DNA of 64,000 nucleotides from Nitrosopumilus sp. Lineage in GTDB: Archaea > Thermoproteota > Nitrososphaeria > Nitrososphaerales > Nitrosopumilaceae. The stretch covers positions 672,001 through 736,000 of the forward strand of contig OY759726.1 of the NCBI GenBank assembly GCA_963662625.1, in the 5' to 3' direction. A model generated the notes under the pieces. It searched no databases. It was given only the letters and a program-made list of their open reading frames with translations, and had not been told where the DNA came from. Positions 2,035 to 63,903 of the stretch are shown here, in pieces. The position numbers and the translations under genes were made by a program. Position 1 is the first letter of the stretch. Every line of letters starts with the position of its first letter.

Positions 2035-3288
<1,254 letters not shown>

Positions 3289-4384: not shown

Positions 4385-4514
4385 GCAGGTATGGTCGCGC
4401 CGGATCCTATTAATTACTTTCAGGCCCAGCGGCCTGCCGCGTGACCGGGTTCCCGGGCACGGAAAGGCAGCCCCGGGGGCCGGTACGGGCGGGGCCGCGC
4501 GGCAGGCCGGGCCC

Positions 4515-5760
4515 CAGTTAAGCGAAAAGTAGACCAAATAGTCAACTCTCGCAATTCCAAACAGATCAACAGGGGATGGGCCCCGACAAGACTTGAATTG
4601 TCTCGAAACAAGACCCGCCAGGGCCGCGACATGGTGAACGACCCCCGCCTATATCAGGGTGTCGTCTCCGGCATGCGCGGGTTCCTGGCCCCGCTCATGC
4701 GGCCAGCGGGCCGCAACGCCGTGTTCGGAGTGGACGCCCTCAACCGGGGCATGCTTGGGGCCGCGCTCCGGGACTCGTCGGTCGGGGGGTGCGCCAACGC
4801 GGCCAAGGCCGTGCACGGCAGGGCGGCCCCCTCGGACAGGTGGTTCGCCTCGGCGCTCAGGGGGGCAGGCGGCGCCGGGATCCAGGATGCCCTCGGCGGC
4901 GCCGTGGGGAGGCAGGCGGCCGCGCTCAAAAAGGCCGGAAGGCTGCCCCGCAAGCCCTCCATCGCCATCGACATGCACCTGATACCGCGCTACGATTCCG
5001 CGCCGGGGCCCGGGCTGACCCGCTCCAGGAGCAAGAACGGGACCAAGCTGTTCGAGAGGTACATCACGGTCCAGTGCGTCGGGGGCAGGTACCCGCTGGT
5101 TTTGGGCGCGTACCGCGTGAACATGTTCGATTCCGTGCCTGGTTTCGTCGAAAAGGCGCTGCGGTCGGTACGGGACGCCGGAATCGGGCCCGGCCTCGTC
5201 CTGCTGGACAGGGAGTTCTTCACGGTGGAGACGATCAGGGCGCTGGACAGGGCCCGCGTCGGGTACCTCATGCCGTGCAGGAACACCGGCAACGTGGTGG
5301 CCGCGCTGCGGGAGTTCGCGCGCAACGCCAGGCCCGGCGTGTCCCCGGTGACGATCGAGGGGCGGAACTCCGCGGGGTACCACATCAAGATCGAGGAGAG
5401 GAAGAAGTGCGACGATCCCTCCGTCCCCGAGGAGCGGTACATCGGGTTTGCGACCAACCGCCCCGCAGCCAGCGCAAGGGGGTACCCGCGCAGGTGGGGC
5501 ATCGAGACGTCGTACAGGGTTATAGAGTCCATGAGGGCCAAGACCAGGGTCGCCGACGAGGGGGCCCGCATGCTGTGCTTCTACTACTCGCTGCTGGCGT
5601 ACAACGAGTGGGTGGTGGTGCGGGCCGTCCTTTCTGGAAGGGGTTGCAGGAACGGCGTGATGACCCAGCGGGCGTTCGCCTACCAGTTGGAGTCGGCCCG
5701 GATACTGGAGCCCAAGCCCCCGCCATGAGGGGGCAGGATCGGGTACATTTCGCTTAACTG
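4515..5760 (+). mobile_element. ISH3-family (IS4-like) insertion sequence
   Basis: TIRs CAGTTAAGCGAAAAGTA (4515-4531) and TACATTTCGCTTAACTG (5744-5760); 5-bp direct repeat GGCCC on both sides (4510-4514, 5761-5765). Confidence 0.88.
4598..5728 (+). CDS. DDE transposase (ISH3/IS4-like)
   Basis: IAIDMH, LLDREFF, YPRRWGIETSYR (Y-2-R-3-E signature). Start uncertain. Confidence 0.88.
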   Translation: MSRNKTRQGRDMVNDPRLYQGVVSGMRGFLAPLMRPAGRNAVFGVDALNRGMLGAALRDSSVGGCANAAKAVHGRAAPSDRWFASALRGAGGAGIQDALGGAVGRQAAALKKAGRLPRKPSIAIDMHLIPRYDSAPGPGLTRSRSKNGTKLFERYITVQCVGGRYPLVLGAYRVNMFDSVPGFVEKALRSVRDAGIGPGLVLLDREFFTVETIRALDRARVGYLMPCRNTGNVVAALREFARNARPGVSPVTIEGRNSAGYHIKIEERKKCDDPSVPEERYIGFATNRPAASARGYPRRWGIETSYRVIESMRAKTRVADEGARMLCFYYSLLAYNEWVVVRAVLSGRGCRNGVMTQRAFAYQLESARILEPKPPP

Positions 5761-5805
5761 GGCCCTTGGGAAAGCGTATTATACGGCCCGGATCCATGTA
5801 GGGTC

Positions 5806-17619: not shown

Positions 17620-18900
17620 GTGGCGTGGTTACGGTGTTAAGTATTGGACCACCTGGACTGCCTTGGCCTCCCCGTTGCCAAGCATGGCACGTACCGGCTC
17701 CCGCATCTCCCCCGTGCTGCCGTGCAGGACGTTGGACGTGCCGTGCCCGGTCCCCTCCCGCCGTGCCTCTGCCGGGTTCAGCTCCGGCGCGCGTGGGGGA
17801 AAGTACTCCAGCACCGCGTCGCCCCCGAACCCGGACAGCGCCCCTGCCACCTTCTTGGACTTGTGGGAGCTCGCGTTGTCCACGAGCATCACGAGCTTCC
17901 CGTGCAGGTACGAGAGAAAGTCCGTGAAGCTGTCGCCGCTTGCCTCGTCGCAGGACCTGCGGCCGGACCCGTTCCCGGACAGCGCCCCGAACGGGCAGGG
18001 CCTCTACCTGGGGAGGCTGACCGGCGTGGCGGCCTCCCCGCCCCTCGGGTACCAGCCGTTCCTGGCGTCCCGCCCGATTATGTGGGAGGGCTCGCCCCCG
18101 GCGAGGACGGCGTACCCCGGGGGCGTAGTAACGGCGTTAAGCATTGGACCACCTGGACTGCCTTGGCCTCCCCGTTGCCAAGCATGGCCCGGATCGGTGC
18201 CTGTATCCGCCCCACACAGTAGCGCATGGAGTCTGGCGCGCCGTGCCTGATCCAATTTTAATCACGGATACTGCGTACCCCCTGGCGATGCCAGCCGCTT
18301 TTTTTGAACTCGGCCTTCGCGCTTTCCGAGGCCGGTTTGGGGCGCCTGGGCCTGGGCTTCCTCCACGAGAAGCCCAGCCTCGCCAGTAGGTCGTACATGC
18401 CGCGGTCGCTGTACCGCACGCCGAACCTGTCCTGCACGTGCCGCACGACGAGCGGCGCGGTCCACGCCCCGGACTCCAGGCCGCACCTCCTGGGCCCGGC
18501 CACCAGGTCCGCCCTGAGCTCCCTGAGCTGGGAGGCGTCCAGCCTGCAGGGGGCGCCGGGCGGCGCCGCGTCGTGCCTGCCGGATATGCCGCCGCCCTCC
18601 ACGGCATGCAGGAGCCACCTGTGCACTGTGGCGTACGGCCTGTTGAGCAGCCTGCCCGTCTGGCGTATGGACCGGCCCTCCTTCCTGTGCATGTACGCCA
18701 GGAGCCTGGTGGCCGCCTTGGGGTCCTCCTCATCCCTGTGGCACTGCCGCAGGTATGACATGCGCGTGTTTGGGAGGAACATGCCTCCCGTGGGTATCGA
18801 TGACTTCATGGGGGCGGTGCGGGTTTCCACGTATTGGATCTTTTGGTCAGGGATTGTTGTCCGAGTTGTGATCCAATATCAATCACGGGTACTACGCCCC
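17620..18900 (-). mobile_element. IS630-family remnants (two partial copies)
   Basis: ORF A 18258-18830 with HTH and WTAPLV...GVRYS...LGFSWRKPRP...EFKK (A-run); DDE fragment LVDNASSHKS...FPPRAPELNPAE at 17629-17892; 3' end duplicated (17637-17690 vs 18137-18190); inverted repeat GGGGCGTAGTA (18120-18130)/TACTACGCCCC (18890-18900). Confidence 0.8.
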
Positions 18901-19591
18901 CCAACCCTCCGGCGGCGCGGCCCGTCGCCCAGCCGAGGAAGGCGCACGGGGCGGGCGCGGCGGTCCCGGCGGGCCTGCCCCGGGGCGGGCACGCCGCTGC
19001 GTGCCACGTCCCGGGCGGGGAGGCCGCGCGGGAGAGGCGGCTGGCCGGGCACCGGGCAAGGACGGCGCGGGAGAGGACGCGCTCCAAGAACCCGGCGCGC
19101 GGGATGCCCCCGCGAGGGCGGGCCGGGATCCCCGGGGCGCCGTTCTCGCGTGCGTGCGTGCGGGAGCTGCGCGGGCCGGGGGGCAGGGGGGCGTGGCGGG
19201 CGCCCCGGGACCGCCGGGTTCCCGGACGGGGGCGCCGCCGACTGCGACGCCGGGATCAATGCTGCGGCGGACGGGAACGCCCGGCTCCCCGCCGCGGTTA
19301 CCGGGGCGGCCGGGCGGGGTCCCCGGTGGCGGGGCCCGCGGGCGGCGTGCCTGGCGCGGGCCCCTGCCCGGTCTCTGCAAGGCCGTGCGGCGATCCCTCG
19401 CGCGCGGGATCGCGCGCGGCGCGTTCAATGCGCGCGGGAAGGGCGCTGGGGCCGCGGCCAAGGCGCGCCTTGGCCGGGATCGATCCCGCCTGCTTGCGCC
19501 CGGCTCCGCGGTGCTGGGCTTTGCGTTGACCTCTAGTCAGCTGGCCGGCAAGGAACCCACGTTTAACTCTGGAAGTGGCCCGGTATGGGTG

Positions 19592-20790: not shown

Positions 20791-21546
20791 TTAATTTCTA
20801 TATGCGCTGATCCGGAACGGCCCGCGCATCGCGCCGCGGGCGCGCCCCGTCACGCTTGTCGCGGCCGGTTTCGCGATCCTCACCCCCGTGATCTCCCGCA
20901 CGGCCCCCGCCGCCTTCCCGAACGGGACGGCCGCGTGGCGCAGCGCGGCCACCGCGGCCACCGCGTTCCTGCCGCAGCTCCCGCGCGCCGGGAGGCCGCT
21001 TGGCGCCACGTGCCCCCTGCCGCACTTGGGGCACGCGGCGGTCTGGACGGCGCGGCGCGTCTCCGTCACGGTAACCTCAAAGCCCGGCATGTCCCGCGTG
21101 GCGGGCCTGCCCGGCACGGTCCTGCGGCCGCACCGGCCGCACCCGGGCGGGACGCCCCCCTCGAACCCGTGGCGCACCGTGCGCCCCGGCGCGTGCCCGC
21201 GGGACGCCCCGCGGTGCCCCGGCTGCCCGCCGGGCTTCCCCGCGGGGGCCCTGCCGCCGCCCCCCTCCGGAGCCGCCTTCCGGGCCTTCCTCCTCGCCCG
21301 CCTGGCTTCCTTCCATCCCGGCGACTTGGCCGACGGCGGGGAGTGGGCGTTCCCGGGGTACGCGAGGCGGGCCCGGGGCCTCCTGGTTTCTGCCACCGCC
21401 TCCTTGTTCACTGCCACCACCTCCTCGTATTTTGGCTTGATCGAGCCGGCATCGCCGGGCGCCCGTGCCAGCATGCCCTCCAGCTGCCTGGCCGTTCTGC
21501 GCCTTGCCACGCACGGACTGGCACCTACCGCCATAAGGATCAGCAT
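20791..21546 (-). pseudogene. IS66-family transposase, N-terminal remnant
   Basis: NAHSPPS, KPGGQPGHRG, CGRCG and CPKCG zinc finger; no catalytic half. Confidence 0.8.
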
Positions 21547-22082
21547 GATCGCGCCTTGCTGGTTAAAGGGTCAGCATACGTGACCTCATACGAGCCGTCA
21601 GTAGCAATTAATTTAAGGCATGCGTTCCTAAACATCATATGGATAAAATCACAAAATCAGATTCAGCCAGAATTCAATCCCACGCAGCCAAGACCGGCAC
21701 CAACGCCGGTTTTGCGCGGAGAGCGCAGTCTGCAGCCGACAAAAACCAATAATTCGCGATCTAGCGCGGGTTGATGGCGGCGCGCCGCGCCTGCTGGGGG
21801 CGTTTTTTTTTTTTTTTTTTTTTTGATGCTACGGCGGCCCCGCCCGGGGTGGCGCCCGCGGATAATTTCGCATCCCGAATGGCCGTACGGCAGCCCGTCG
21901 CATGACCCGGCACGATCCACGGGCCATGGCCTAGGCGGGCAAAACGGCAATATTGAGGCGCGCCCCAGACACCTCGGAATGCATCGCGTCATGTGGACCG
22001 GGGGCGGGGGACGCCGCGCCGGCCACAGTCCCCCGGCTGCCGGACCGCGCGCCACGCGGGGTTCTAGGGGATGAGGCCCAAG

Positions 22083-28436: not shown

Positions 28437-28509
28437 ATAGTTTGTTGCGCAACTCGGTTTTCAGGCACGGAAATAGCCTTGTGAAGACGGGTTCAGGCAG
28501 GGTTACGCA
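28437..28509. mobile_element. Miniature IS5-family TIR element, one end interrupted by IS110
   Basis: ATAGTTTGTTGCGCAACT resembles the IS5 TIR GTAGTCTGTTGCACAACT; the other end GGTTACGCA abuts the IS110 right end. Confidence 0.6.
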
Positions 28510-29340
28510 CCTATGTTAACCACCCAGGCGTAGTTGCCGCAATGTATCCCGTGGCTTTTCCGATCCGTGACTGGGTTGCACGGCATGGGATTCATGGCCA
28601 GCGCTGGCAGGACTGTCCGGGATGCGGGCAGCGCGTGGGGGTCACCCCCGGCGCGCCTTCCACGTCCTGGCCAGCGTGCACCGGCACGGCCTCTCGTTGC
28701 GGGACTAATAGGGCGTCCTGGTGGCCGGCATGTGCCGCATCATGGTGACAATCTTGTGGGCCACCATGATTATGGCCGGCCCGTGCCTGTCCGCGTGCCT
28801 CCGGCGCGCGGACGCGTGCGCGGCCTCCATCCTGGCGTCGTGCCGCACGGTCACGTCCGCGGCCCCGCGCATGGCCCAGCTGGCCAGGCTGCTGGGGTCG
28901 ATCTTCTTGATCCTCCCCGCGTACGGCCGGTTCCCCGACTGGCAGGCCGCCGGGCACGGCCCGGCCCACGACGCCGCCTGCCTTGGCCCCCTGGACCCCG
29001 GGGACGTCCCCTATCCCGGGGGCCATCAGCACCGCGGCGAGCGCGCCGGCGCCGGCCGTGCCGGCCGGCAGCCTCGCGTCACCGTTGTGGGCGGCCTCCA
29101 TCCCGGGGGCCCCCCGTCACGGAGATCTCCTCCGTCAGGTACCCCGCCTGCCGGGCGCGCCGGCCCGGGACCGCCCCGTCGCACGCGGAGCCCGGCCCCG
29201 CGGACTCCGGCTGCCCCCAGAGCCTTTTCGGAGTGCATGTCCGCGGCGTCCACCCGGGCGTCGTGGCGGCCTGGGAGGCTGCGGGCGCGGCCAAGTCTTC
29301 TTCACCTGCGTGGTCCACGTGCGGGTGCGCGGTCGCCGCA
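28510..29340 (-). pseudogene. Degenerate, 5'-truncated third copy of the IS110 element
   Basis: Right end CCTATGTTAACCACCCAGGCGTAGTTGCC and the 3' coding half align with 47427-48200, with frameshifts. Confidence 0.88.
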
Positions 29341-45999: not shown

Positions 46000-47426
46000 T
46001 ATTTCACCTCCCTTAGTTTCATATGTATTGTTACCCAAAATGCCTTTTAAGGAAAGCGGACAGTTGTGCGTGCTCCCTAGAGTGACGCTCACAAATAATT
46101 TCGCCTCCTGAATGGCCATACGGCAGCACGTCGCATGATCCGGCACGATCCACGGATTATGGCCCGGCCGTGCCGCTTGGAGTCCCTGCGCCCCAGCCTC
46201 CCCCGCCCACCGGTCGTGCTGGGCCGCCGTGGGCCTTACCCCCTGCACGATGTTCTCCCACCTGCGCGAGCGCGCGTGGTCCCCGGACGTCCCCTTGAAC
46301 GCCGACATGGTTATCCCGGTCGGCCGCCTCCTGCCGTACCCCTTCCTGGCCTCCCGGTACCGGGCATTCTCCTCCCTCTCCCTCGTGCCCGTCCTGCCGG
46401 CGCGCGCCTCCGGGCCGCCCCCCGGCCGGCCCCGCGCCGCCCCGCCCCACGCGCCGCCAGCGCCCCTGCCCCAGGCGGCGGGCGCCACCCTGGCCGGGAT
46501 GATCGGCCCCACGCCCATGCCGCGGCACCTCCGCACGTTGTCCCGCGACGCGTACGCCCCGTCCGCGATCAGGCGCGCCCCGCGGGGGCCGGGCGGCTGG
46601 CCGCACTGCAGCGCGAGCGGCGCCACGCCGCTCGCGGGGAGGTTGGGCGGGGGCGAGCCCGCGCGCGGCAGGGGATCCCCCGCCGCGGCGGCCTTCCCGC
46701 GGATCAGCGCCATGCGCCTGTCCTGCTTCCCGCCCTGCTTCCCCTCCTGCTTCCCGCCCTGCTTCCCGCCCTGCTTCCCCTCTTGCCGCTTCCCGTCACG
46801 CGGCCCCGCCACGGTTCCCAGGAGCTCCTTCAGCATGGGGGAGTCGCCCGTCCTGTCGTCGGTCACCACCGCCGCGGGCATCTTCTTCGTGTCGGCGTCG
46901 GCCAGCAGGTGCAGCCTGGCGAACCCGCGCCTCGCCTCCCGCTTCTTCCGTATCCACTCGCCCCGGTTGCACTGCTTCAGGCCGGTCGAGTCCGCCAGCA
47001 GGGTCATGGGCTGGCCGCCGCCGGAGACGCGGACGACTCCCCCGCCGATGCCCGCGCCGGGGCGCGCCATCCTCCTGGCCAGCACCGAGTAGTGCGGCGC
47101 GCCGCGCCCCCCCAGCATCCCCGCGAGGAGCCCGGACAGCTGCCTGTACTGGACCCCGAGCGAGGTCCTCACCGCGGCGGCGGCCATGACCAGCGCCCAG
47201 GCGTACCTGAACGGGGCGCCCTCCTTGCCGGCGTTGGCCTCCCTCAGGTCGTCCCCCGGCCGGGGCCATGCGACACCGCCAGGCCCCGCCCGCGCCTGGC
47301 GCATTTCTCGTTGTCGGTCGCAGCCAACGGGGACGGTGCGCGGCCGTGATCCAAGGCCTTTTCGGTTTGGCGTGGTTGGGCCCGGGGTTCAACTGTTCAG
47401 GCCCGGCAATTTCTGGCAGTTGTGCA

Positions 47427-48829
47427 CCTATGTTAACCACTCAGGCGTAGTTGCCGCAATGCATCCCGCGGTTTTTCCGATCCGTGACTGGGTTGCATGG
47501 CATGAGATTTATAGCTAGCGCTGGCAAGACGATCCGGGATGCGGGCAGCGCGGGGGGCCGCCCCCGGCGCGCCTTCCCCGTCCCGGCCAGCTTGCGCCGG
47601 CACGGCCCCTCGTTGCGGGACTCGTAGGGTGTCTTGGTGGTCAGCATGTGCCACATTATGGTGACCATCTTGTGGGCCACCACCATGATTGCCGGCCCAT
47701 GCTTGTCCGCGTGCCTCCGGCGCGCGGACGCATACACGGCTTCCATCCTGGCGTCGTGCCGCACGGCGGTGTTCGCGGCCTCGCGCATGGCCCAGTTGAC
47801 CAGGCTGCCGGGGTCGATCTTCTTGATCCTCCCCGCGTACGGCCGGTTCCCCGACTGGCAGGCCGCCGGGCACAGCCCGGCCCACGACACCATCTGCCTT
47901 GGCCCCCTGAACCTGGAGACGTCCCCGATCCCGGGGGCCATCAGCACCGCGGTGAACGTGCCGACGCCGGTCATGCTGGCCAGCAGCCTCGCGTCACCGT
48001 TGTGGGCGGCCCCCGTCCCGGGGAGCCCCTCCGTCACGGAGATCTCCTCCGTCAGGTGCCTCACCTGCCGGGCGCACTGGCCCAGGACCAACCCGTCGTG
48101 CCCAGAGCCCGGCCCCGCGGATTCCAGCTGCCCCAGGGCCTTTTCGGAGTGCATGGTGGAGGCGTCCATTTGGATGTCGTGGCGGTCCAGGAGGCTGCGG
48201 GCGCGGCTTGTCACGCGCGTCCTGTCCCGGGCCAGCCTCACCCTCTGCCTGACCATCGCGCGTATCCCCCTGGTGTGGCCCGGGGGGACGTAGCACTCCG
48301 GTATCATGTCCATCCCCGGCACCTGCGCTATCTTCTCTGCGTCAATCCTGTCGGTCTTCTTGGCGGTCCTGGCTATCAGGGCCATCTTGTACGTGTTGGC
48401 CAGTTTGATGCCGGTCCCGGCCGCCTCGAAGGCGTCAAACGTCTTGTTCCACATGTTGCCAGTCGTCTCGCAGGCGGCCCTGCAGGGGCCGCCGCCCAGG
48501 TACCTGCGCGCCATCACCCCTGCGAACTTCGCCGCGCCGTCCCGGGTGTTGGGGTACTGCCCCCTCTCGAGAACCTTCCCGTTCCCGTCCACCACGCACG
48601 CGCCGCGCTTTCTCTTCCCCATGCCTGTCCCTATGCTTGTCTTTCTCATCCTTTCCTATCACCTCCTTTCGGATGTCTGACGGATCGGAAGCTGCACACA
48701 CCTATCAGGGCGCGAAGCCCAGTGACACGGCAGCTCGGATTGCCCCATTCAACAGAAAGGGCGCCAGGCCCACGCGCTACCAGGGGTCGATCCATCGGGG
48801 CAACTACGCCTGGGTGGTTATCATGTGTT
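47427..48829 (-). mobile_element. IS110-family element copy 1 (1403 bp)
   Basis: Flanked by core TG on both sides; 22-bp sub-terminal IRs; ORF 47441-48649. Confidence 0.92.
47441..48649 (-). CDS. IS110 DEDD recombinase (first Asp mutated)
   Basis: SIGTGMGK, ACETTG, KTDRIDA, MTGVG, WAGLCP...QSG, VAHKM. Confidence 0.88.
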   Translation of the reverse strand: MRKTSIGTGMGKRKRGACVVDGNGKVLERGQYPNTRDGAAKFAGVMARRYLGGGPCRAACETTGNMWNKTFDAFEAAGTGIKLANTYKMALIARTAKKTDRIDAEKIAQVPGMDMIPECYVPPGHTRGIRAMVRQRVRLARDRTRVTSRARSLLDRHDIQMDASTMHSEKALGQLESAGPGSGHDGLVLGQCARQVRHLTEEISVTEGLPGTGAAHNGDARLLASMTGVGTFTAVLMAPGIGDVSRFRGPRQMVSWAGLCPAACQSGNRPYAGRIKKIDPGSLVNWAMREAANTAVRHDARMEAVYASARRRHADKHGPAIMVVAHKMVTIMWHMLTTKTPYESRNEGPCRRKLAGTGKARRGRPPALPASRIVLPALAINLMPCNPVTDRKNRGMHCGNYA

Positions 48830-48886
48830 CAACAGACTACAGGCAAGGGTAATTATTAAAGCGCCGCCCGGTTTGCTTTATGGCTT

Positions 48887-49946
48887 TGTAGTAAATGCGG
48901 ATGTGGTCAATTGTACGGAAAGTCGGTCCGCGCCGGATCGAGAGGACTGTATCCGACTATTTTAGGCTGTACCGATCACGGAAGGCCATGACAGGAAGAC
49001 TTGCTGGGGGGTCCCGGAAGTACCTGGTCAGGCAGCGAGAGAAGGGCGTGCCGTCATCCCGGGTGGCGGCGGACCTGGGAATCACCGCCAGGCACGCACG
49101 GAGGATGCGGGCGAGGTTCCTGTAGACCGGAACGACGGTGGCTAGGATGGGCAGGCCGCGCGCCTGCATGAGTGCCGCCCAGATACGGCTGGCTACAGAC
49201 GCGCACCCGAGGCACCGGTGGGGGTGGTGCGCACCGCGAGGCGCCTCAGGAGGGGCCATGATATAAGCTACTGCTCCGCATGCCGGATACTGGAGAAGGC
49301 CGGGGCGGTGGCCGCGTCTGCCGCAAAACCGGGGAGGCGCGAGCGGGTGCGCTACGAGCGCAAATGCCCGGACGCCATGTGGCACGTCGACTGGCACGAG
49401 ATGAAGGACCCCCGGTTCAGGGGCCTCCAGCTGGTCGCGTACCTGGACGACGCCTCGCGGTGCGCGGTGGCCGCGCGCGTGTTCACGCAGGCCACGCCGG
49501 GGAACGCCGTGCTGGCGCTCAGGGACGCGATCGGGCGGTTCGGCACGCCGGCCACCGTGCTCCCCGGCAACGGCTCGTGCTTCGTGGGCCGGAACGGCCG
49601 CAGGAAGGCCCCTCCCCGGCCGTGGAAGCCCACCGCGTTCGAGGCGGAGCTGCCGGGCCTCGGGATCGAGCTCATAAACTCCAGGCCGCACCACCCCCAG
49701 ACCAACGGGAAGATCGAGAGGTTCTTCCGGAGCGTGGAGGACGGGACATGGCACTACGAGAGCATGTCCGAGTACATGGCGTACTACAACGAGGACAGGC
49801 CGCGCTTCTCCCTGGACATCGACAACTACCAGACCCCGCTGAAGGCCTTCCATGACAAGGAGGCCGTGGCAGCGATCAGGGAGAGCAACCCGGGATGGAT
49901 GGAGGCGGAGGCGGATGACTAGCGGACCGACTTTTCATATACTACA
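48887..49946 (+). mobile_element. IS481-family element, transposase disrupted
   Basis: Ends TGTAGTA...TACTACA; WHVDWH, YLDDASR, PQTNGKIERF, YNEDRP; in-frame stop at 49123-49125 and a frameshift. Confidence 0.88.
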
Positions 49947-49995
49947 AAGACTGCGAATGTAAAACAAGTGATATATATTTGAAGGACACAATACA

Positions 49996-50640
49996 ATGGA
50001 ATTGGGCTTTATAGATATTTTCAAGAAAAGCAGGAGACAGATAAACAGGGAGAACCAAGAACAGGGTAGGAGGGGAGAGAGGCAAATCAGGGAAAAATAC
50101 GAGTTCTCTGGCCATGAGGTTGAAAGGACCGGCAGGGGCCACGACTTTAAGGTGTCTAAGACCAACTGGCTTACAGGTAAAAAAGAAATCAAATACGTAG
50201 AAGTCAAGACCGGCAATTCAAGGCAGTCGCCACTGCAGAAAAAAAAGATGAGGCGATTGGGCGAGAGGTATGTGGTGGAAAGGGTGGGCACTGGGCTGTT
50301 TGGGCTTGGATCTACCACCACATACGGCACTCCCAAGAACCCACCTGCTGGAACCTGGGGCCCGGGCTCCCTGCTGGGCGGATCCGCCCCGAGGAAGAAG
50401 AGGTCGGCCAAAAAGCCTTCCAGCAGCATCTGGGGCCCGGGCTCCCTGCTGGGCGGATCCGCCCCGAGGAAGAAGAGGTCGGCCAAAAAGCCTTCCAGCA
50501 GCATCTGGGAATCGCCAAAAAGGAAGAGCAATCCCGGAAGGAAGAGCCCAACAAAATCATCTGCCAGCATCTGGGGCTCGGGTGTCTCTACCAGAAGAAA
50601 GAGCAGGGCCAAAGGATCTGGTTTCGGGATGTGGTCCTAG
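49996..50640 (+). CDS. PD-(D/E)XK nuclease-like protein with basic repetitive tail
   Basis: GRRGE...GHDF...YVEVKTG; 75-bp tandem duplication at 50355-50504. Confidence 0.72.
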   Translation: MELGFIDIFKKSRRQINRENQEQGRRGERQIREKYEFSGHEVERTGRGHDFKVSKTNWLTGKKEIKYVEVKTGNSRQSPLQKKKMRRLGERYVVERVGTGLFGLGSTTTYGTPKNPPAGTWGPGSLLGGSAPRKKRSAKKPSSSIWGPGSLLGGSAPRKKRSAKKPSSSIWESPKRKSNPGRKSPTKSSASIWGSGVSTRRKSRAKGSGFGMWS

Positions 50641-56419: not shown

Positions 56420-56504
56420 GGTGTGGAGTCCCCGCGCGCCGCTTAAAAAACTAGCTCCGCGCGTAGTCTGTTGAACACATGATAACCACCCAGGCGTAGT
56501 TGCC

Positions 56505-56645
56505 CCGATGGATCGACCCCTGGTAGCGCGTGGGCCTGGCGCCCTTTCTGTTGAATGGGGCAATCCGAGCTGCCGTGTCACTGGGCTTCGCGCCCTGATA
56601 GGTGTGTGCAGCTTCCGATCCGTCAGACATCCGAAAGGAGGTGAT
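56505..56645 (+). ncRNA. Candidate bridge/seek RNA in the IS110 left non-coding end (boundaries approximate)
   Basis: TCTGTTG (56547-56553) equals target-left+core; ATAGGTG (56598-56604) equals donor-left+core; each follows a GGGC-N5-GCCC hairpin. Confidence 0.65.
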
Positions 56646-56653
56646 AGGAAAGG

Positions 56654-57862
56654 ATGAGAAAGACAAGCATAGGGACAGGCATGGGGAAGAGAAAGCGCGG
56701 CGCGTGCGTGGTGGACGGGAACGGGAAGGTTCTCGAGAGGGGGCAGTACCCCAACACCCGGGACGGCGCGGCGAAGTTCGCAGGGGTGATGGCGCGCAGG
56801 TACCTGGGCGGCGGCCCCTGCAGGGCCGCCTGCGAGACGACTGGCAACATGTGGAACAAGACGTTTGACGCCTTCGAGGCGGCCGGGACCGGCATCAAAC
56901 TGGCCAACACGTACAAGATGGCCCTGATAGCCAGGACCGCCAAGAAGACCGACAGGATTGACGCAGAGAAGATAGCGCAGGTGCCGGGGATGGACATGAT
57001 ACCGGAGTGCTACGTCCCCCCGGGCCACACCAGGGGGATACGCGCGATGGTCAGGCAGAGGGTGAGGCTGGCCCGGGACAGGACGCGCGTGACAAGCCGC
57101 GCCCGCAGCCTCCTGGACCGCCACGACATCCAAATGGACGCCTCCACCATGCACTCCGAAAAGGCCCTGGGGCAGCTGGAATCCGCGGGGCCGGGCTCTG
57201 GGCACGACGGGTTGGTCCTGGGCCAGTGCGCCCGGCAGGTGAGGCACCTGACGGAGGAGATCTCCGTGACGGAGGGGCTCCCCGGGACGGGGGCCGCCCA
57301 CAACGGTGACGCGAGGCTGCTGGCCAGCATGACCGGCGTCGGCACGTTCACCGCGGTGCTGATGGCCCCCGGGATCGGGGACGTCTCCAGGTTCAGGGGG
57401 CCAAGGCAGATGGTGTCGTGGGCCGGGCTGTGCCCGGCGGCCTGCCAGTCGGGGAACCGGCCGTACGCGGGGAGGATCAAGAAGATCGACCCCGGCAGCC
57501 TGGTCAACTGGGCCATGCGCGAGGCCGCGAACACCGCCGTGCGGCACGACGCCAGGATGGAAGCCGTGTATGCGTCCGCGCGCCGGAGGCACGCGGACAA
57601 GCATGGGCCGGCAATCATGGTGGTGGCCCACAAGATGGTCACCATAATGTGGCACATGCTGACCACCAAGACACCCTACGAGTCCCGCAACGAGGGGCCG
57701 TGCCGGCGCAAGCTGGCCGGGACGGGGAAGGCGCGCCGGGGGCGGCCCCCCGCGCTGCCCGCATCCCGGATCGTCTTGCCAGCGCTAGCTATAAATCTCA
57801 TGCCATGCAACCCAGTCACGGATCGGAAAAACCGCGGGATGCATTGCGGCAACTACGCCTGA
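56654..57862 (+). CDS. IS110 DEDD recombinase (first Asp mutated)
   Basis: Same protein as 47441-48649; GGAGGTGA SD-like sequence upstream. Confidence 0.88.
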   Translation: MRKTSIGTGMGKRKRGACVVDGNGKVLERGQYPNTRDGAAKFAGVMARRYLGGGPCRAACETTGNMWNKTFDAFEAAGTGIKLANTYKMALIARTAKKTDRIDAEKIAQVPGMDMIPECYVPPGHTRGIRAMVRQRVRLARDRTRVTSRARSLLDRHDIQMDASTMHSEKALGQLESAGPGSGHDGLVLGQCARQVRHLTEEISVTEGLPGTGAAHNGDARLLASMTGVGTFTAVLMAPGIGDVSRFRGPRQMVSWAGLCPAACQSGNRPYAGRIKKIDPGSLVNWAMREAANTAVRHDARMEAVYASARRRHADKHGPAIMVVAHKMVTIMWHMLTTKTPYESRNEGPCRRKLAGTGKARRGRPPALPASRIVLPALAINLMPCNPVTDRKNRGMHCGNYA

Positions 57863-57930
57863 GTGGTTAACATAGGTGCACAACTCGGCACGATCCCCGG
57901 GCCGTGGCCAGGCCGTGCCGCTTGGAGTCC

Positions 57931-59061
57931 CTACGCCCCCGCCTCACCCGCCCACCGGTCGTGCTGGGCCATCCTGAGCCTTGCCTCCTGCACGATGTTC
58001 TCCCACCTGCGCGAGTGCACGTGGTCCCCGAACATCCTCTTGAACGCCGATATGATTATCTCGATCAGCCACCTCCTGCCGTACCCCTTCCTAGCCTCCC
58101 GGTACCGGACGTTCTCCTCCCTCTCCCTCGTGCCCACCCTGCCGGCGCGCGCCTCCGGGCCGCCCCCCAGCTGGTCCCGCACCGCCTCGCCCCACGCGCC
58201 GCCGGTGCCCTTGCCCCTGGCGGTGGACGCCACCTTGACCGGGATGATAGGCCCCACGCCCATGTCGCGGCACCTCCGCATGTTGTCCCGCGACGCGTAC
58301 GCCCCGTCCGCGATCAGGCGCGCCCCGTGGGAGCCGGGCGGCTGGCCGCACTGCAGCGCGAGCGGCGCCACGCCGCTCGCGAGGAGGTTGGGCGGGGGCG
58401 AGCCCACGCGCGGCAGGGGATCCCCAGCCGCGGCTGCCTTCCCGCGGATCAGCGCCATGCGCCTGTCCTGCTTCCCCGCCGGCTTCCCGTCCGGCTTCCC
58501 GCCACGCGGCTCCACCACGGTTCCCAGGAGCTCCTTCAGCATGGGGGAGTCGCCCGTCCTGTCGTCGGTCACCACCGCCGCGAGTATCTTCTTCGTGTCG
58601 GCGTCGGCCAGCAGGTGCAGCTTGACGAACCCGCGCTTCACCTTCCACTTCTTCCGTATCCACTCGCCCCGGTTGCACTGCTTCAGGCCCGTGGCGTCGG
58701 CCAGCAGGGTCATGGGCTGGCCGCCGCCGGAGACGCGGACGACTCCCCCGCCGATGTCCACGTCGAGGCGCGCCATCCTCCTGGCCAGCACCGAGTAGTG
58801 CGGCGCGCCGTGCCCCCCCAGCATCCCCGCGAGGAGCCCGGACAGCTGCCTGTACCGGGCCCCGAGCGAGGTCCTCACCGCGGCGGCGGCCATGACCAGC
58901 GCCCCGGCGTACCTGAACGGGGCGCCCTCCTTGCCGGCGTTGGCCTCCCTCAGGTCGTCCTCCCAGCCGGGGTCATACGACACAGCCAGGCCCCTCCCGC
59001 GCCTGACGTATTTCTCGTTGTCGGTCGCAGCCAACGGGGACGGTGCGCGGCCGTGATCCAA
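57931..59061 (-). CDS. IS5-family DDE transposase
   Basis: PHYSVLARR, LADATGLKQCNRGEW, FVKLHL, ADGAY, YGRRWLIEIIISAFKRMFG. Confidence 0.88.
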   Translation of the reverse strand: MDHGRAPSPLAATDNEKYVRRGRGLAVSYDPGWEDDLREANAGKEGAPFRYAGALVMAAAAVRTSLGARYRQLSGLLAGMLGGHGAPHYSVLARRMARLDVDIGGGVVRVSGGGQPMTLLADATGLKQCNRGEWIRKKWKVKRGFVKLHLLADADTKKILAAVVTDDRTGDSPMLKELLGTVVEPRGGKPDGKPAGKQDRRMALIRGKAAAAGDPLPRVGSPPPNLLASGVAPLALQCGQPPGSHGARLIADGAYASRDNMRRCRDMGVGPIIPVKVASTARGKGTGGAWGEAVRDQLGGGPEARAGRVGTREREENVRYREARKGYGRRWLIEIIISAFKRMFGDHVHSRRWENIVQEARLRMAQHDRWAGEAGA

Positions 59062-59294
59062 GGCCTTTTCGGTTTGACATGGTTGGGCCGGGGGTTCAAC
59101 TGTTTAGACCCGGCAATTTCTGGCAGTTGTGCAACAGACTACCGCGCGATGCGTTCCCGGGAGGCGGCGCGGGGGGCCTGGGACCTGGCATACCTACCAC
59201 AGACACAGGAAACTAGCGGATCGATGTGGCTATCCACGGACTCGCACGTCAGTGTTACCCATGCCCAGTCAGAAAATCCTAGAAGCTGCAGGCC

Positions 59295-60728
59295 TTACAT
59301 CAGCGACACGTCGTGGGGCTGGCTTTCCGCGAACCCGGCCCTAGACATCTTGATGAACTCGGCGTTTGCCTGCATCTGCGGGATGGTGTGGGCGCCGCAG
59401 TAGCTCAGCCCGGAGCGGATGCCGCCCGTCAGCTGCTTCAGCATGTCGGTGACCGTCCCCTTGTAGGGGACCATCGCCTCCACGCCCTCGGCCACGTAGT
59501 CGTTGAGGTCGTCGTCAAGGGAGATCGTCCCGGTCTCCTTTGACTTCCTCCCGATGGAGGCCGCCAGGGACGCCATCCCGCGGTAGACCTTGAAGCGCTT
59601 TCCGTTCTTTGTCAGCACCATTCCGGGCGACTCGTCGGTCCCGCCCAGCATGCTCCCAACCATCACGCTCGAGGCGCCGGCTGCCAGCGCCTTCGTGGCG
59701 TCGCCGGAGTTCCTGGTGCCGCCGTCGGATATTATCGGGATGCCGCTGTCGTTGCCCACCCGGGCGCAGTCCACCACGGCGGTAAGCTGGGGCACGCCGG
59801 ATCCCGTGATGACGCGGGTGATGCAGATGGAGCCCGAGCCGACGCCGACCTTGACTGCGTCGACGCCAGCCTTGATCAGGTCGTCGGCCCCCCTGGCGGT
59901 GGCGACGTTCCCGGCAATCAGCTCGCAGCCGGGAAACGCCTTCTTTATGTTGCGCACGGTGTTGACCGCGTTCTCGCTGTGCCCGTGCGCAATGTCCACC
60001 ACCAGCACGTCCGCCCCGGCGTCCAGGATGGCCTCGGCCCTCTCCAAAAAGTCCCCCTTCACGCCGACCGCCGCCCCCACTAGCGGGCGGCCCTTCCCGT
60101 CCTTGGAGGCGGACGGGTAGTCCTCCGTGTTCGTTATGTCCTTGGACGTGACCAGCCCCCTCGCGACCCCGGAGTCGTCCACCAGCGGGAGCTTCTCGAT
60201 CCTGTGCTTGTGGAGGATGCGCTTCGCCTCGTCAAGGGAGATGCCCGGCCTGGCGGTGACGACGTCCTTGGTCATGACGTCCCTGATCGGCGTGTCCATG
60301 TTCGACTCAAGCAGCAGGTCCCTGGCAGTGACTATCCCCACCAGCTTGGAGTCAGAGTCGGTCACCAGGATGCCCGAGATGCCCTTGTCCGTGGCATAGT
60401 CGATCGCGTCCAGGATGGCCTTGTCCTGGCCTATGGAGTACGGGTTCTCTATCATGACGCTGCCGGATCGCTTGACCTTGAGTACCTCGCTTACCTGCTC
60501 CCTGATGGTCAGGAACCTGTGGATGATCCCGATGCCCCCCGCCCGGGCCATCGCCACGGCCATGGCGGACTCTGTGACGGTGTCCATGTTGGCGCTTACT
60601 AGCGGTATGTTGATCGAGATGTTCCGCGACAGCCTTGTGCTCAGGTCCGTCTGGGTGCGGCTGGTGATGTCAGAATACTTGGGGACTAGGAGAACATCGT
60701 CAAACGTCAACCCCTCCCTGAATTCCAA
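59295..60728 (-). CDS. guaB: Inosine-5'-monophosphate dehydrogenase
   Basis: GLTFDDVLLVP, SANMDTVTE, CBS pair, VGVGSGSICITR, YRGMAS, AEGVE; TTG start at 60728. Confidence 0.96.
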   Translation of the reverse strand: MEFREGLTFDDVLLVPKYSDITSRTQTDLSTRLSRNISINIPLVSANMDTVTESAMAVAMARAGGIGIIHRFLTIREQVSEVLKVKRSGSVMIENPYSIGQDKAILDAIDYATDKGISGILVTDSDSKLVGIVTARDLLLESNMDTPIRDVMTKDVVTARPGISLDEAKRILHKHRIEKLPLVDDSGVARGLVTSKDITNTEDYPSASKDGKGRPLVGAAVGVKGDFLERAEAILDAGADVLVVDIAHGHSENAVNTVRNIKKAFPGCELIAGNVATARGADDLIKAGVDAVKVGVGSGSICITRVITGSGVPQLTAVVDCARVGNDSGIPIISDGGTRNSGDATKALAAGASSVMVGSMLGGTDESPGMVLTKNGKRFKVYRGMASLAASIGRKSKETGTISLDDDLNDYVAEGVEAMVPYKGTVTDMLKQLTGGIRSGLSYCGAHTIPQMQANAEFIKMSRAGFAESQPHDVSLM

Positions 60729-60852
60729 GCTAAACCTTGTAAAGAATGCCCCGGATGGATTATAAGCCTTTGTTTCCGGCATGCCGGGCGCGCGGCCGCC
60801 GGGGCCGGGAAACGTCCGCTTCCTTTAAACAAAATCAGGACGGGGGGTCATC

Positions 60853-62274: not shown

Positions 62275-63903
62275 ATGGCATCGATTCAGCAGGGCCCGAA
62301 CGGGCCGGTACTGGTCCTAAAGGAGAGCGCCCTGCAGCAGAAGGGCAAGGACGCCCAGCAGAACAACATCACGGCCGCGAAGCTGGTGGCCGACCTGGTG
62401 CGCAGCAGCCTAGGGCCGCGCGGCCTTGACAAGATGCTGGTGGACTCGCTAGGCGACGTCACCATCACGAACGACGGCGCCACCATCCTCAAGGAGATCG
62501 ACGTGCAGCACCCCGCCGCCAAGATGATGGTCGAGATCTCGAAGACCGTGGACAACGAGGTGGGGGACGGCACGACGTCGTCGGTGGTATTCGGCGGGGC
62601 CCTGCTCGCCAGGGCCGAGGAACTGCTCAAGAAAGACGTCCACTCGTCGGTAATCGTCGAGGGGTACCAGGCGGCGGCCGAAAAGACGCTCGAGATTTAC
62701 GCCAAGCTGGCCAAGAAGATAGAGCCCGACGACCGCGGGTCGCTCCTGAAGATCGCCAACACCAGCATGCAGTCGAAGCTGATCTCGGAGGACGGCGACG
62801 CGATATCCAAGATCGTGGTCAACGCGATCCTGGAGGTGGCCACGAAGCAGGCAAGCGAGTACGCGGTGGACCTAGACAACATAAAGGTGGAGAAGAAGGC
62901 CGGCGGCTCCATCCAGGACACGCAGGTGGTCAGGGGGATAGTCTTGGACAAGGAGATAGTCCACAGCGCGATGCCCACGAGGATCGAGAAGGCGAAGATC
63001 GCGCTGCTGAACGCGGCGCTGGAGATAGAAAAGACCGAGATGAGCTCGGAGATAAGGATTACCGACCCGACCCAGATGCAGATGTTCCTCGAGGAGGAGA
63101 ACAGGCTGCTAAAGTCAATGGTCGACCAGATTCACGACGTCGGGGCCAACGTGCTGATCTGCCAGAAGGGGATCGACGACATCGCGCAGCACTACCTCTC
63201 AAAGCACGGCATAATGGCGGTCCGCCGCGTCAAGGAGAGCGACATGATCAAGCTCTCAAAGGCCACAGGCGGGCGCGTCACCACCAGCCTCGACGACCTC
63301 ACCGAGGGCGACCTCGGCGTGGCCGACCTGGCGCACCAGAAGAAGGTAGAGTCCGACAAGTGGGTGTTCATAGAGGGGTGCAGGCACCCCCAGTCCGTGA
63401 CCCTCCTGATCAGGGGCGGATCCCAGCGGGTGATCGACGAGGTGGACCGCTCGATCCACGACTCGCTCATGGTGGTCAAGGACGTCATAGAAAAGCCGGA
63501 GATCGTCGCGGGCGGAGGCGCCCCCGAGTCGTACGCTGCGGCCCAGCTGAAGGACTGGGCAGACAGCTTCGACGGCCGGCAGCAGCTCGCGATAAAAAAG
63601 TACGCCGAGGCGCTTGAGACCATCCCGCTCACCATAGCGGAGAACGCCGGGATGGACCCCATCGACACGATGGCCAACCTCAGGGCCAAGCAGAACCAGG
63701 GCCACAAGTGGACCGGCATAGACGCGAGGCACACCAAGATAGAGGACATGCTCTCGATCGACGTCATCGAGCCCATTGCGGTAAAGGAGCAGATCATAAA
63801 GTCGGCCACCGAGGCAGCTTGCATGGTCCTGCGCATCGACGACGTCATCGCGGTGTCCGGCGAGCCCTCTGGCGGCGGCCCCCCCGCCCCGCCGATGGGC
63901 TAG
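62275..63903 (+). CDS. ths: Thermosome (group II chaperonin) subunit
   Basis: SSLGPRGLDKML, TNDGATIL, GDGTTS, VAGGGAPE, LRIDDVI. Confidence 0.96.
   Translation: MASIQQGPNGPVLVLKESALQQKGKDAQQNNITAAKLVADLVRSSLGPRGLDKMLVDSLGDVTITNDGATILKEIDVQHPAAKMMVEISKTVDNEVGDGTTSSVVFGGALLARAEELLKKDVHSSVIVEGYQAAAEKTLEIYAKLAKKIEPDDRGSLLKIANTSMQSKLISEDGDAISKIVVNAILEVATKQASEYAVDLDNIKVEKKAGGSIQDTQVVRGIVLDKEIVHSAMPTRIEKAKIALLNAALEIEKTEMSSEIRITDPTQMQMFLEEENRLLKSMVDQIHDVGANVLICQKGIDDIAQHYLSKHGIMAVRRVKESDMIKLSKATGGRVTTSLDDLTEGDLGVADLAHQKKVESDKWVFIEGCRHPQSVTLLIRGGSQRVIDEVDRSIHDSLMVVKDVIEKPEIVAGGGAPESYAAAQLKDWADSFDGRQQLAIKKYAEALETIPLTIAENAGMDPIDTMANLRAKQNQGHKWTGIDARHTKIEDMLSIDVIEPIAVKEQIIKSATEAACMVLRIDDVIAVSGEPSGGGPPAPPMG

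Follow-up and report, generated by a model that had tools for sequence, protein, structure and literature searches.

Why an archaeal transposase gene should decay predominantly by exchanging A:T for G:C pairs is the question raised by one copy, copy B, of an insertion sequence (IS) of the IS5 family in the chromosome of Nitrosopumilus sp. (contig OY759726.1). The copy lies in a window of 64,000 nucleotides (contig positions 672,001 to 736,000), the whole stretch of DNA that was analysed, to which coordinates refer unless they are marked as genome positions. The genome is closed (1,858,698 bp, 63.4% GC, 99.5% complete) and carries amoA, which identifies an ammonia-oxidising archaeon; the window also encodes TiaS, diphthamide synthase and a thermosome subunit. 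The flagged stretch, 46150-47330, is the interior of copy B, one of 9 full-length IS5 copies in the genome, and a first-pass annotation had read it as the product of one-directional A:T>G:C decay relative to a second copy in the window, copy A. The present analysis shows that transposase genes of this genome are destroyed to degrees that vary between 0 and 38% of all A/T sites, and that in the elementary event both A:T pairs of 5'-TNNA-3' are turned together into CNNG; the process is probably directed at IS copies rather than genome-wide.

The element belongs to the IS5 family by its DDE_Tnp_1 domain and by Y-x2-R-x3-E-x6-K, which we take to be the IS5-type signature and which is kept in the AT form (YGRRWLIEIIISAFK), copy B having a G at the E position. 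Counted against the unanimous state of four near-identical copies, with 39 gap columns and 13 non-unanimous columns dropped, copy B has 29 A>G and 25 T>C changes within 46150-47330, i.e. 54 of 312 A/T sites (17%), as opposed to four G>A and three C>T changes (7 of 817 G/C sites, 0.9%) and 18 transversions. The per-site bias toward A:T>G:C is thus roughly twenty-fold. The peptide differences that had been quoted for the two copies read exactly as given, with GRRWLIEIIISAFKRMFGDHVH and GEAVRDQLG in copy A, and GRRRPTGITMSAFKGTSGDHAR and GGAARGRPG in copy B. The Pfam score for DDE_Tnp_1 is 75.6 bits for copy A, 77.6 bits for another AT-form copy and 37.4 bits for copy B, which retains just the N-terminal part of the domain; an AT-form copy also matches DDE_Tnp_1_5.

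As active copies multiply, a majority rule could mislead about the ancestral state, and function and outgroups were therefore used for polarity. This is best seen in a second element, assigned to the IS110 family by its DEDD_Tnp_IS110 and Transposase_20 domains, of which 8 full-length copies span a GC content of 0.632 to 0.772. Along this rising series the DEDD_Tnp_IS110 score drops from 98 to 64 to 33.8 bits and finally to no match; the intact copy i1194 scores 98 bits and, for Transposase_20, 78.2 bits, and copy i719, which has lost the first catalytic D (IGIDIG > IGTGMG), 64 and 61.9 bits. At the 39 residues that differ between i719 and i1194, the transposases of three relatives (52-64% identical) carry the i1194 state in 29 cases, the i719 state in none and neither in 10; at the 74 residues that differ between i476 and i1194 the corresponding numbers are 62, 0 and 12. 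Pfam scores and outgroups together rule out the reverse polarity, a C>T decay that would have generated the AT forms.

The spectrum of the IS110 copies is strikingly pure. Relative to i1194, i719 has 22 A>G, 22 T>C and zero other changes, and i728 carries the same 44 changes, the two forming an inverted repeat of 99% identity. Copy i476 has 89 A:T>G:C changes, one reverse transition and one transversion, and i17 (genome 17305-18727, 1.4 kb) 199, two and nine, respectively, which amounts to 38% of all its A/T sites; the truncated fragment i700p has 41 A>G, 43 T>C, 12 reverse transitions and 19 transversions. In each copy A>G and T>C are nearly equal and interleaved on one strand, with C>T nearly absent. 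With high confidence, then, the AT forms are ancestral and the decay is real and runs one way from A:T to G:C, nearly all of it by transitions. The one-way decay that had been claimed for copy B against copy A is borne out (54 versus 7 reverse changes, with polarity fixed by catalytic residues, Pfam and outgroups), and the polarised spectrum is neither balanced nor AT-biased once the ancestral state is inferred.

The changes do not fall independently of each other. A TNNA site offers two adenines on opposite strands with a 3' stagger of 3 bp, staggers of 2 or 4 being hit less often, and in i719 both positions are changed at 11 such sites, one at 2 and neither at 36. At ANNT sites the counts are 3, 6 and 45, and at ANNA sites 0, 7 and 69. 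Joint changes of a T and the A at +3 number 11 in i719, 7 in the IS5 copy c31741 (14 of its 16 changes) and 17 in the copy at genome 394347, against maxima of 4, 2 and 6 in 500 shuffles per copy. The last of these copies (genome 394347-395326) is the fifth copy of another family, family 5, and has 70 A:T>G:C changes with 0 ANNT pairs. Pairing is equally evident in copy A, with four TNNA pairs versus a shuffle maximum of 1, and over the whole element in copy B, which compared with copy c1672946 shows 66 A:T>G:C changes and 14 TNNA pairs (maximum 4). In lightly mutated copies almost all changes are paired.

Sequence context further specifies the event. The fraction of tetramers changed is 0.79 for TCGA, 0.66 for TCCA/TGGA, 0.57 for TATA, 0.50 for TAGA, 0.47 for TACA, 0.34 for TCAA, 0.26 for TGAA, 0.23 for TGCA, 0.20 for TTAA and 0.18 for TAAA, values to which a model of two independent half-sites gives a rough fit; 5' of the target, G is mildly favoured and A disfavoured. 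Codon-level selection was rejected as the origin of the 3-nucleotide spacing, as all codon positions and non-coding parts are changed and the T..A order is favoured in each phase. Sequential changes, the first promoting the second, were rejected as well, since an ancestral C at -3 is not enriched, and the pairs are thus joint events.

The same pattern had been claimed for other IS remnants, and it holds for the IS110, IS66, rve-type and IS630-type elements and for two further DDE_Tnp_1 families (Table 1). Nine families were aligned genome-wide (IS110, IS5, the two further DDE_Tnp_1 types, IS66, the rve type and three IS630-like groups), and their sum relative to the AT-richest copy is 3273 A:T>G:C changes, 747 reverse transitions and 1348 transversions, a count which the choice of an AT-richest reference inflates in seven of the nine families and in which the copies are not independent, polarity being independently fixed for IS110 and IS5. 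The TNNA>CNNG pairs add up to 474 in the direction from reference to copy and to 28 in the reverse direction, with control orders at 137 (ANNT), 32 (ANNA) and 59 (TNNT). For two of the DDE_Tnp_1 families at least four near-identical copies exist, the reference among them; the family 5 reference, which lies in the window, differs from three other genome copies by 0 to 3 transversions and by no transition. The rve-type copy in the window differs from its family reference by 30 A:T>G:C changes, 18 reverse transitions and 17 transversions, and among its 37 TNNA sites five have both positions changed and one a single position. The extreme-GC tract that had been noticed near 18900-19500 also turned out to be a GC-shifted repeat copy, with 45 sites G/C here and A/T in the other copy, five the opposite way and 11 transversions.

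Table 1. Position and state of the IS copies and related tracts (W, window coordinates; G, genome position).
Feature	Position	Strand	State
Family 5 reference, DDE_Tnp_1-type IS copy	W 4507..5765	+	unmutated
Extreme-GC tract	W 18901..19304		GC-shifted copy of repeat at G 1426713-1427121, 83.4% identity
IS66-family remnant	W 20804..21592		GC about 0.75
Truncated IS110 fragment i700p	W 28492..29290	-	GC 0.736, heavily hypermutated, inside low-GC island
IS5 copy B	W 46141..47426	-	hypermutated; open frame 463 amino acids, catalytic E and many residues altered
IS110 copy i719	W 47424..48839	-	lightly hypermutated; inserted in right terminal inverted repeat of IS5 copy B
rve-type (IS481/IS3-like) IS copy	W 48906..49947	+	moderately changed
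IS110 copy i728	W 56464..57879	+	inserted in left terminal inverted repeat of IS5 copy A
IS5 copy A	W 57886..59133	-	nearly intact; 10 A:T>G:C changes, 8 within 4 TNNA pairs
Hypermutated copy	G 394347		GC 0.744, flank 0.36-0.42
Hypermutated IS110	G 1507275		GC 0.756, flank 0.51-0.64
Hypermutated copy	G 1665197		GC 0.746, flank 0.43-0.48
Hypermutated copy	G 1750928		GC 0.721, flank 0.40-0.46

The confinement of the process to IS copies is apparent from several comparisons. Hypermutated copies contrast with the GC content of their flanks (Table 1), and as non-repeat intergenic DNA has 59.3% GC (coding DNA 63.2%, the split being made by a crude gene call), the dead IS copies, at 0.72-0.78, overshoot the intergenic composition. 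The TNNA/ANNT ratio is 1.017 in intergenic and 1.00 in coding DNA, and genome-wide no depletion of TNNA or TCGA is seen (TCGA observed/expected 1.27). Eleven non-IS duplicate pairs have 0-3 TNNA pairs each versus 18 in an IS control pair; transversions exceed transitions in most of them, and weak/strong transitions are roughly balanced with one exception. The longest, a 7.4-kb duplicate (9570-16835 versus genome 652423-659842, 97% identity), shows 87 transitions and 110 transversions; it is the gene for a 2421-amino-acid surface protein with ANF_receptor, SdrD_B and Big_5 domains. The exception is a pair of NYN-domain paralogues (genome 9747-10550 versus 66266-67077) with 85 versus 27 weak-to-strong transitions and no TNNA pairs, which points to a separate, unpaired GC-ward pressure, unlike the IS process. 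The suggestion that the process is repeat-directed thus stands in so far as it is aimed at IS copies, but duplication as such is no trigger.

Relatives do not share the process as far as their IS copies were compared. The IS110 copies of G016, G008 and G020, a fragment pair of the same-genus G002 and twenty DDE_Tnp_1 copies of G008, which is itself IS-rich and of high GC, display balanced changes and 0-5 pairs per comparison, with no pair excess; young IS copies of G008 differ by 34 transitions and 2 transversions, in both directions equally. Within the present genome the dose is episodic, not clock-like. The ratio of A:T>G:C to other changes runs from about 4:6 (IS5 copy c7193, from alignment columns) to 44:0 (i719), and i728 has 44 of 521 A/T sites changed, yet the IS5 copy A that hosts it has only 10 changes in all.

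How the copies came to share their changed sites bears on how the events are to be counted. Of the 44 changed sites of i719, 43 are also changed in i476 and all 44 in i17; 18 changed sites are common to i1063 and three heavily mutated copies but not i476, and 17 to i476 and those three but not i1063, and almost no other kinds of change are held in common. These patterns are not tree-like, so that descent along a tree was rejected; site sharing is due partly to descent or conversion and partly to recurrent changes at susceptible sites. Private new G/C states number 16 in i17, 12 in i1507 and 21 in i1699. The ends of the IS110 element are less mutated than its middle. The IS5 copies combine patches of the AT form and of the GC form in a mosaic, the patches being common to subsets of copies, and two IS5 copies are fully identical to each other.

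The arrangement of the elements in the window deserves description of its own. Two IS110+IS5 units (47418-48871 and 56432-57885) stand inverted with arms 99% complementary and about 7.5 kb between them, containing an rve remnant, a TPR protein, an AAA_14/DUF4143 ATPase and prephenate dehydratase, a layout that resembles a composite transposon. The IS110 element sits after TTGTGCA of the IS5 terminal inverted repeat in three places (47419-47426, 57879-57886 and genome 1195673-1195699), which suggests that it targets this repeat specifically. The leftmost 60 nucleotides or so of copy B are unlike other IS5 copies, and 46082-46173 matches 21849-21940 (82%), a segment that is GC-shifted relative to copy B; a hybrid origin of copy B from two related elements is possible. 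A 12-nucleotide unit within the IS5 transposase gene (46700-46790), which encodes GKPD/GKQG-type repeats, differs in number among the copies.

The best explanation of the paired signature, and a tentative one, is a two-fold-symmetric deamination of adenine on mobile-element DNA. A protein would engage double-stranded DNA with two-fold symmetry and convert both adenines of TNNA, the simplest route being deamination to hypoxanthine, a base read as G. Action would take place while the mobile-element DNA is unlike the chromosome, for example excised, circular, or freshly synthesised with both strands new and unmethylated, and joint fixation in one descendant would follow if the T opposite hypoxanthine were replaced by C before replication. 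In B-DNA, the adenines of a target pair lie opposite one another across the minor groove, which together with the half-site behaviour suggests a symmetric duplex-binding protein that converts both. The more specific version, a 'restriction by editing' in which such an enzyme would convert TNNA adenines (best those of TCGA) to hypoxanthine on mobile-element DNA that is transiently unprotected, for example because it is excised or because conservative synthesis has left it fully unmethylated, is rather doubtful.

The enzyme inventory offers no obvious agent. EndoV gave no match in this genome, in both low-GC congeners and in 20 of the 24 family relatives searched, MutS none in the five genomes searched, including this one and the two low-GC congeners, and NucS none in this genome, the one genome searched. 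The deaminase search, limited to two families, retrieved only one dCMP-deaminase-type protein via PF00383 and none via PF00962. Present are an ITPase, a purine-DNA glycosylase (PF02245) and several N6-adenine methyltransferases, one of which, of the Eco57I type, adjoins an open reading frame (ORF) of 370 amino acids. Nothing in this inventory separates the genome from its low-GC congeners. As the latter likewise gave no match for EndoV and MutS, missing EndoV, NucS or MutS alone cannot explain a process not seen in the IS copies of relatives; the proposal that loss of mismatch correction or adenine deamination is the cause is not established, with no deaminase beyond the dCMP-deaminase-type protein in the PF00383 and PF00962 searches. 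Guide-directed targeting of multi-copy DNA by an Argonaute was rejected, as no protein with a Piwi domain (PF02171) was found in this genome or the 8 relatives searched.

Several points weigh against symmetric deamination. No enzyme was identified, with deaminase families beyond the two named outside the search, and the PF02245 family excises hypoxanthine, so that the member present here would tend to undo the deamination. Replication should part lesions that lie on two strands, and joint fixation requires an extra, putative repair step. A generic enzyme acting on double-stranded DNA would by itself leave the targeting of IS copies only unexplained; the link to transposition intermediates is conjecture, and the IS families involved differ in their transposition chemistry. 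About 45% of the changes in heavily mutated copies are unpaired, which means that a second component exists. In addition, the changed-site patterns, not being tree-like, make event counts not independent, and in the seven families with an AT-richest reference polarity rests solely on the pair asymmetry.

Among the alternatives, error-prone GC-biased synthesis confined to the element, by gap repair after excision or by copy-out replication, survives best, if on balance somewhat unlikely. Both strands would be new, misinsertions of G opposite T and C opposite A would fall on one molecule, and template switching would spread the changes and make mosaics. This would account for the sharp edges of the changes at the element, both change types in one descendant, untouched identical copies, the mosaic patches of IS5 and the sets of changed sites that are shared in the near absence of other shared changes. 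It requires no new enzyme, and neither MutS (five genomes) nor NucS (this genome) was found that would correct the mispairs; the less changed ends of IS110 are as expected if only copies with usable ends stay mobilised. However, wobble errors of a polymerase should go both ways unless a strong bias of pool or repair exists, and i17 has 2 reverse transitions versus 199. Nor does such synthesis predict a T..A-only order at 3 nucleotides or the preference for two half-sites, and the transitions in the IS-rich relative G008 (in which MutS and NucS were not searched) are balanced.

A GC-ward mutation pressure or GC-biased repair acting on the entire genome, and visible in dead IS copies as these are free of selection, has to be seen against a real shift in the lineage. 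In three housekeeping genes (59295-60782, 62275-63903 and 2035-3288, with their orthologues, polarised with two further relatives) the GC content at third codon positions (GC3) is 0.885-0.94 here versus 0.29-0.44 in two relatives of the same genus, with protein identities of 64-90% over these genes; in two other genera of the family GC3 is 0.14-0.23, and the GC content of the locus across the family is 0.30-0.61. At 103 four-fold degenerate sites, a comparison blurred by saturation and codon preference, the 71 with ancestral A went to G in 39 cases, to C in 23 and to T in one, with 8 kept, and the 32 with ancestral T to C in 20, to G in 8 and to A in 2, with 2 kept. First and second codon positions show 61 A>G, 19 T>C and 16 A>C versus 9 G>A and 3 C>T. 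A high GC content is also reported for some sponge-associated Thaumarchaeota, which according to the available part of the source are transposase-enriched and have 47-67% GC, compared with 32.5-34.2% in free-living ones (PMC7848895).

That ancestral A was replaced at 63 of 71 sites and ancestral T at 30 of 32, that A>G and T>C are in excess at first and second positions, that the NYN pair, which is not an IS, shifts in the same direction and that this genome gave no match for EndoV, NucS or MutS all speak for such a pressure as the source of the IS changes too. Nevertheless it is improbable as their explanation. The GC-ward replacements at four-fold sites (90 of all 93 replacements) include 31 transversions (34%), as opposed to <5% in lightly decayed IS copies, and TNNA pairing is absent from native genes (6 versus 14 in the control order in the three genes) as from the NYN pair. 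The dead copies, moreover, exceed intergenic DNA and their own flanks (0.36-0.48) in GC content, neither intergenic DNA nor the whole genome is depleted in TNNA, an IS110 copy is proportionally more changed than the IS5 copy that holds it, and the ratio of A:T>G:C to other changes ranges from <1 to >44. By the same evidence, the transversion-rich four-fold spectrum and the lack of TNNA pairing in genes and intergenic DNA, the idea that the IS process could be the source of the lineage's high GC content finds no support in the form in which it was put forward.

GC-biased gene conversion among IS copies, or from diverged GC-rich homologues, would explain patches common to subsets of copies and nested or overlapping sets of changed sites. 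It is very improbable as the origin of the changes, since conversion cannot create alleles and private G/C states are seen in i17, i1507 and i1699; co-transfer in tracts would pair A..T, A..A and T..T like T..A, which is not so, and a diverged homologue would bring transversions, of which i719 has none among its 44 differences from i1194.

That base-calling or polishing errors at methylated adenines, uncorrected in repeats, produced the pattern is scarcely credible even though the paired near-palindromic motif with TCGA on top looks like a two-strand adenine-methylation site and polishing fails in repeats: the effect is copy-specific (four family-5 copies without transition differences and two identical IS5 copies next to others with 70-199 changes), non-IS repeats are clean, changed copies also bear indels, truncations and ordinary changes, and contigs assembled separately from the public run X1, which may be the genome's own source sample and so gives technical rather than independent biological support, contain pieces specific to i17, free of mismatches and at depths of 22-44, one contig of 1453 nucleotides spanning a flank-IS junction of i17, as well as AT-form variants.

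Returning to symmetric deamination, the known systems can be compared with it by effect and by chemistry. Repeat-induced point mutation (RIP) of fungi such as Neurospora shares one-way transitions on two strands, the targeting of multi-copy mobile DNA, a graded dose and composition-shifted relics with ruined genes beside untouched DNA. It differs in that RIP converts C:G to T:A in CpA context, whereas here A:T becomes G:C in paired TNNA>CNNG events, in an archaeon without meiosis in which non-IS duplicates of up to 7.4 kb are spared, so that duplication does not act as a trigger. RIP may be regarded as the nearest analogue in effect, with opposite chemistry and with two of its defining features lacking here. 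The A-to-I hyper-editing of double-stranded RNA by ADAR, or 'biased hypermutation' of RNA viruses, likewise leaves clusters of A>G and U>C from both strands of a duplex, but here the target is chromosomal DNA of DNA transposons, and G is mildly favoured 5' of the target while ADAR dislikes a 5' G. Editing of the ADAR type fixed via complementary DNA was rejected, no reverse transcriptase (PF00078, RVT_1) having been found in this genome or the 8 relatives searched, and mutagenesis by a diversity-generating retroelement was rejected for the same lack of a reverse transcriptase and because the changes are A>G/T>C only and span whole IS elements.

GC-biased gene conversion and T:G-directed very-short-patch repair share with the process a net push from A:T to G:C and the spread of alleles between repeats; unlike it, they act on existing mismatches and can create neither private G/C states nor a strict T..A pairing. 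APOBEC3/AID and DddA-type toxins come close in that they deaminate DNA, leave one-way clusters of transitions and act in conflict with mobile or foreign DNA. Like YwqJ, which the available part of a preprint describes as a toxin that deaminates cytidine in single-stranded DNA (bioRxiv 10.64898/2026.09.29.755374), they all act on cytosine. A literature search, with subscription journals largely outside its reach, returned no account of prokaryotic IS elements hypermutated from A:T to G:C, of a TNNA signature or of a natural DNA adenine deaminase. Prokaryotes are not known to disable transposons through directed hypermutation. The finding is a hypermutation directed at mobile elements, and its TNNA>CNNG pairing is new.

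Two features of the window lie apart from this subject. The low-GC island at 23000-45800 (GC about 0.46-0.63 per kilobase), in which fragment i700p resides, encodes HEPN/AbiV, a PAPS-reductase-domain protein adjoining a ParB_N protein, DprA, a HipA-like kinase with DUF3037, and an AbiEii-like protein, and is probably a foreign defence and toxin-antitoxin island; its stretch 23000-42900 matches relatives in short pieces only, at <=82% identity. At 50355-50504 a perfect 75-nucleotide tandem duplication occurs within an ORF that has no Pfam match.

Set apart from the IS process, the jump in GC content that synonymous sites show inside a single ammonia-oxidising archaeal genus (about 0.37 to about 0.89) bears on the high GC content of some sponge-associated Thaumarchaeota, which in the available part of the source is reported and left unexplained (PMC7848895). 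The TNNA>CNNG signature, with TCGA as the best site, is sharp enough to be sought in other genomes. If true, a natural enzyme turning A:T into G:C in duplex DNA would be of interest for base editing. Should the enzyme reading hold, it would represent a counterpart of RIP in prokaryotes and, among natural enzymes, the first adenine deaminase that acts on double-stranded DNA. If the process is active, it would constitute a new kind of genome defence in archaea and would explain why most IS copies are dead in this IS-laden genome.

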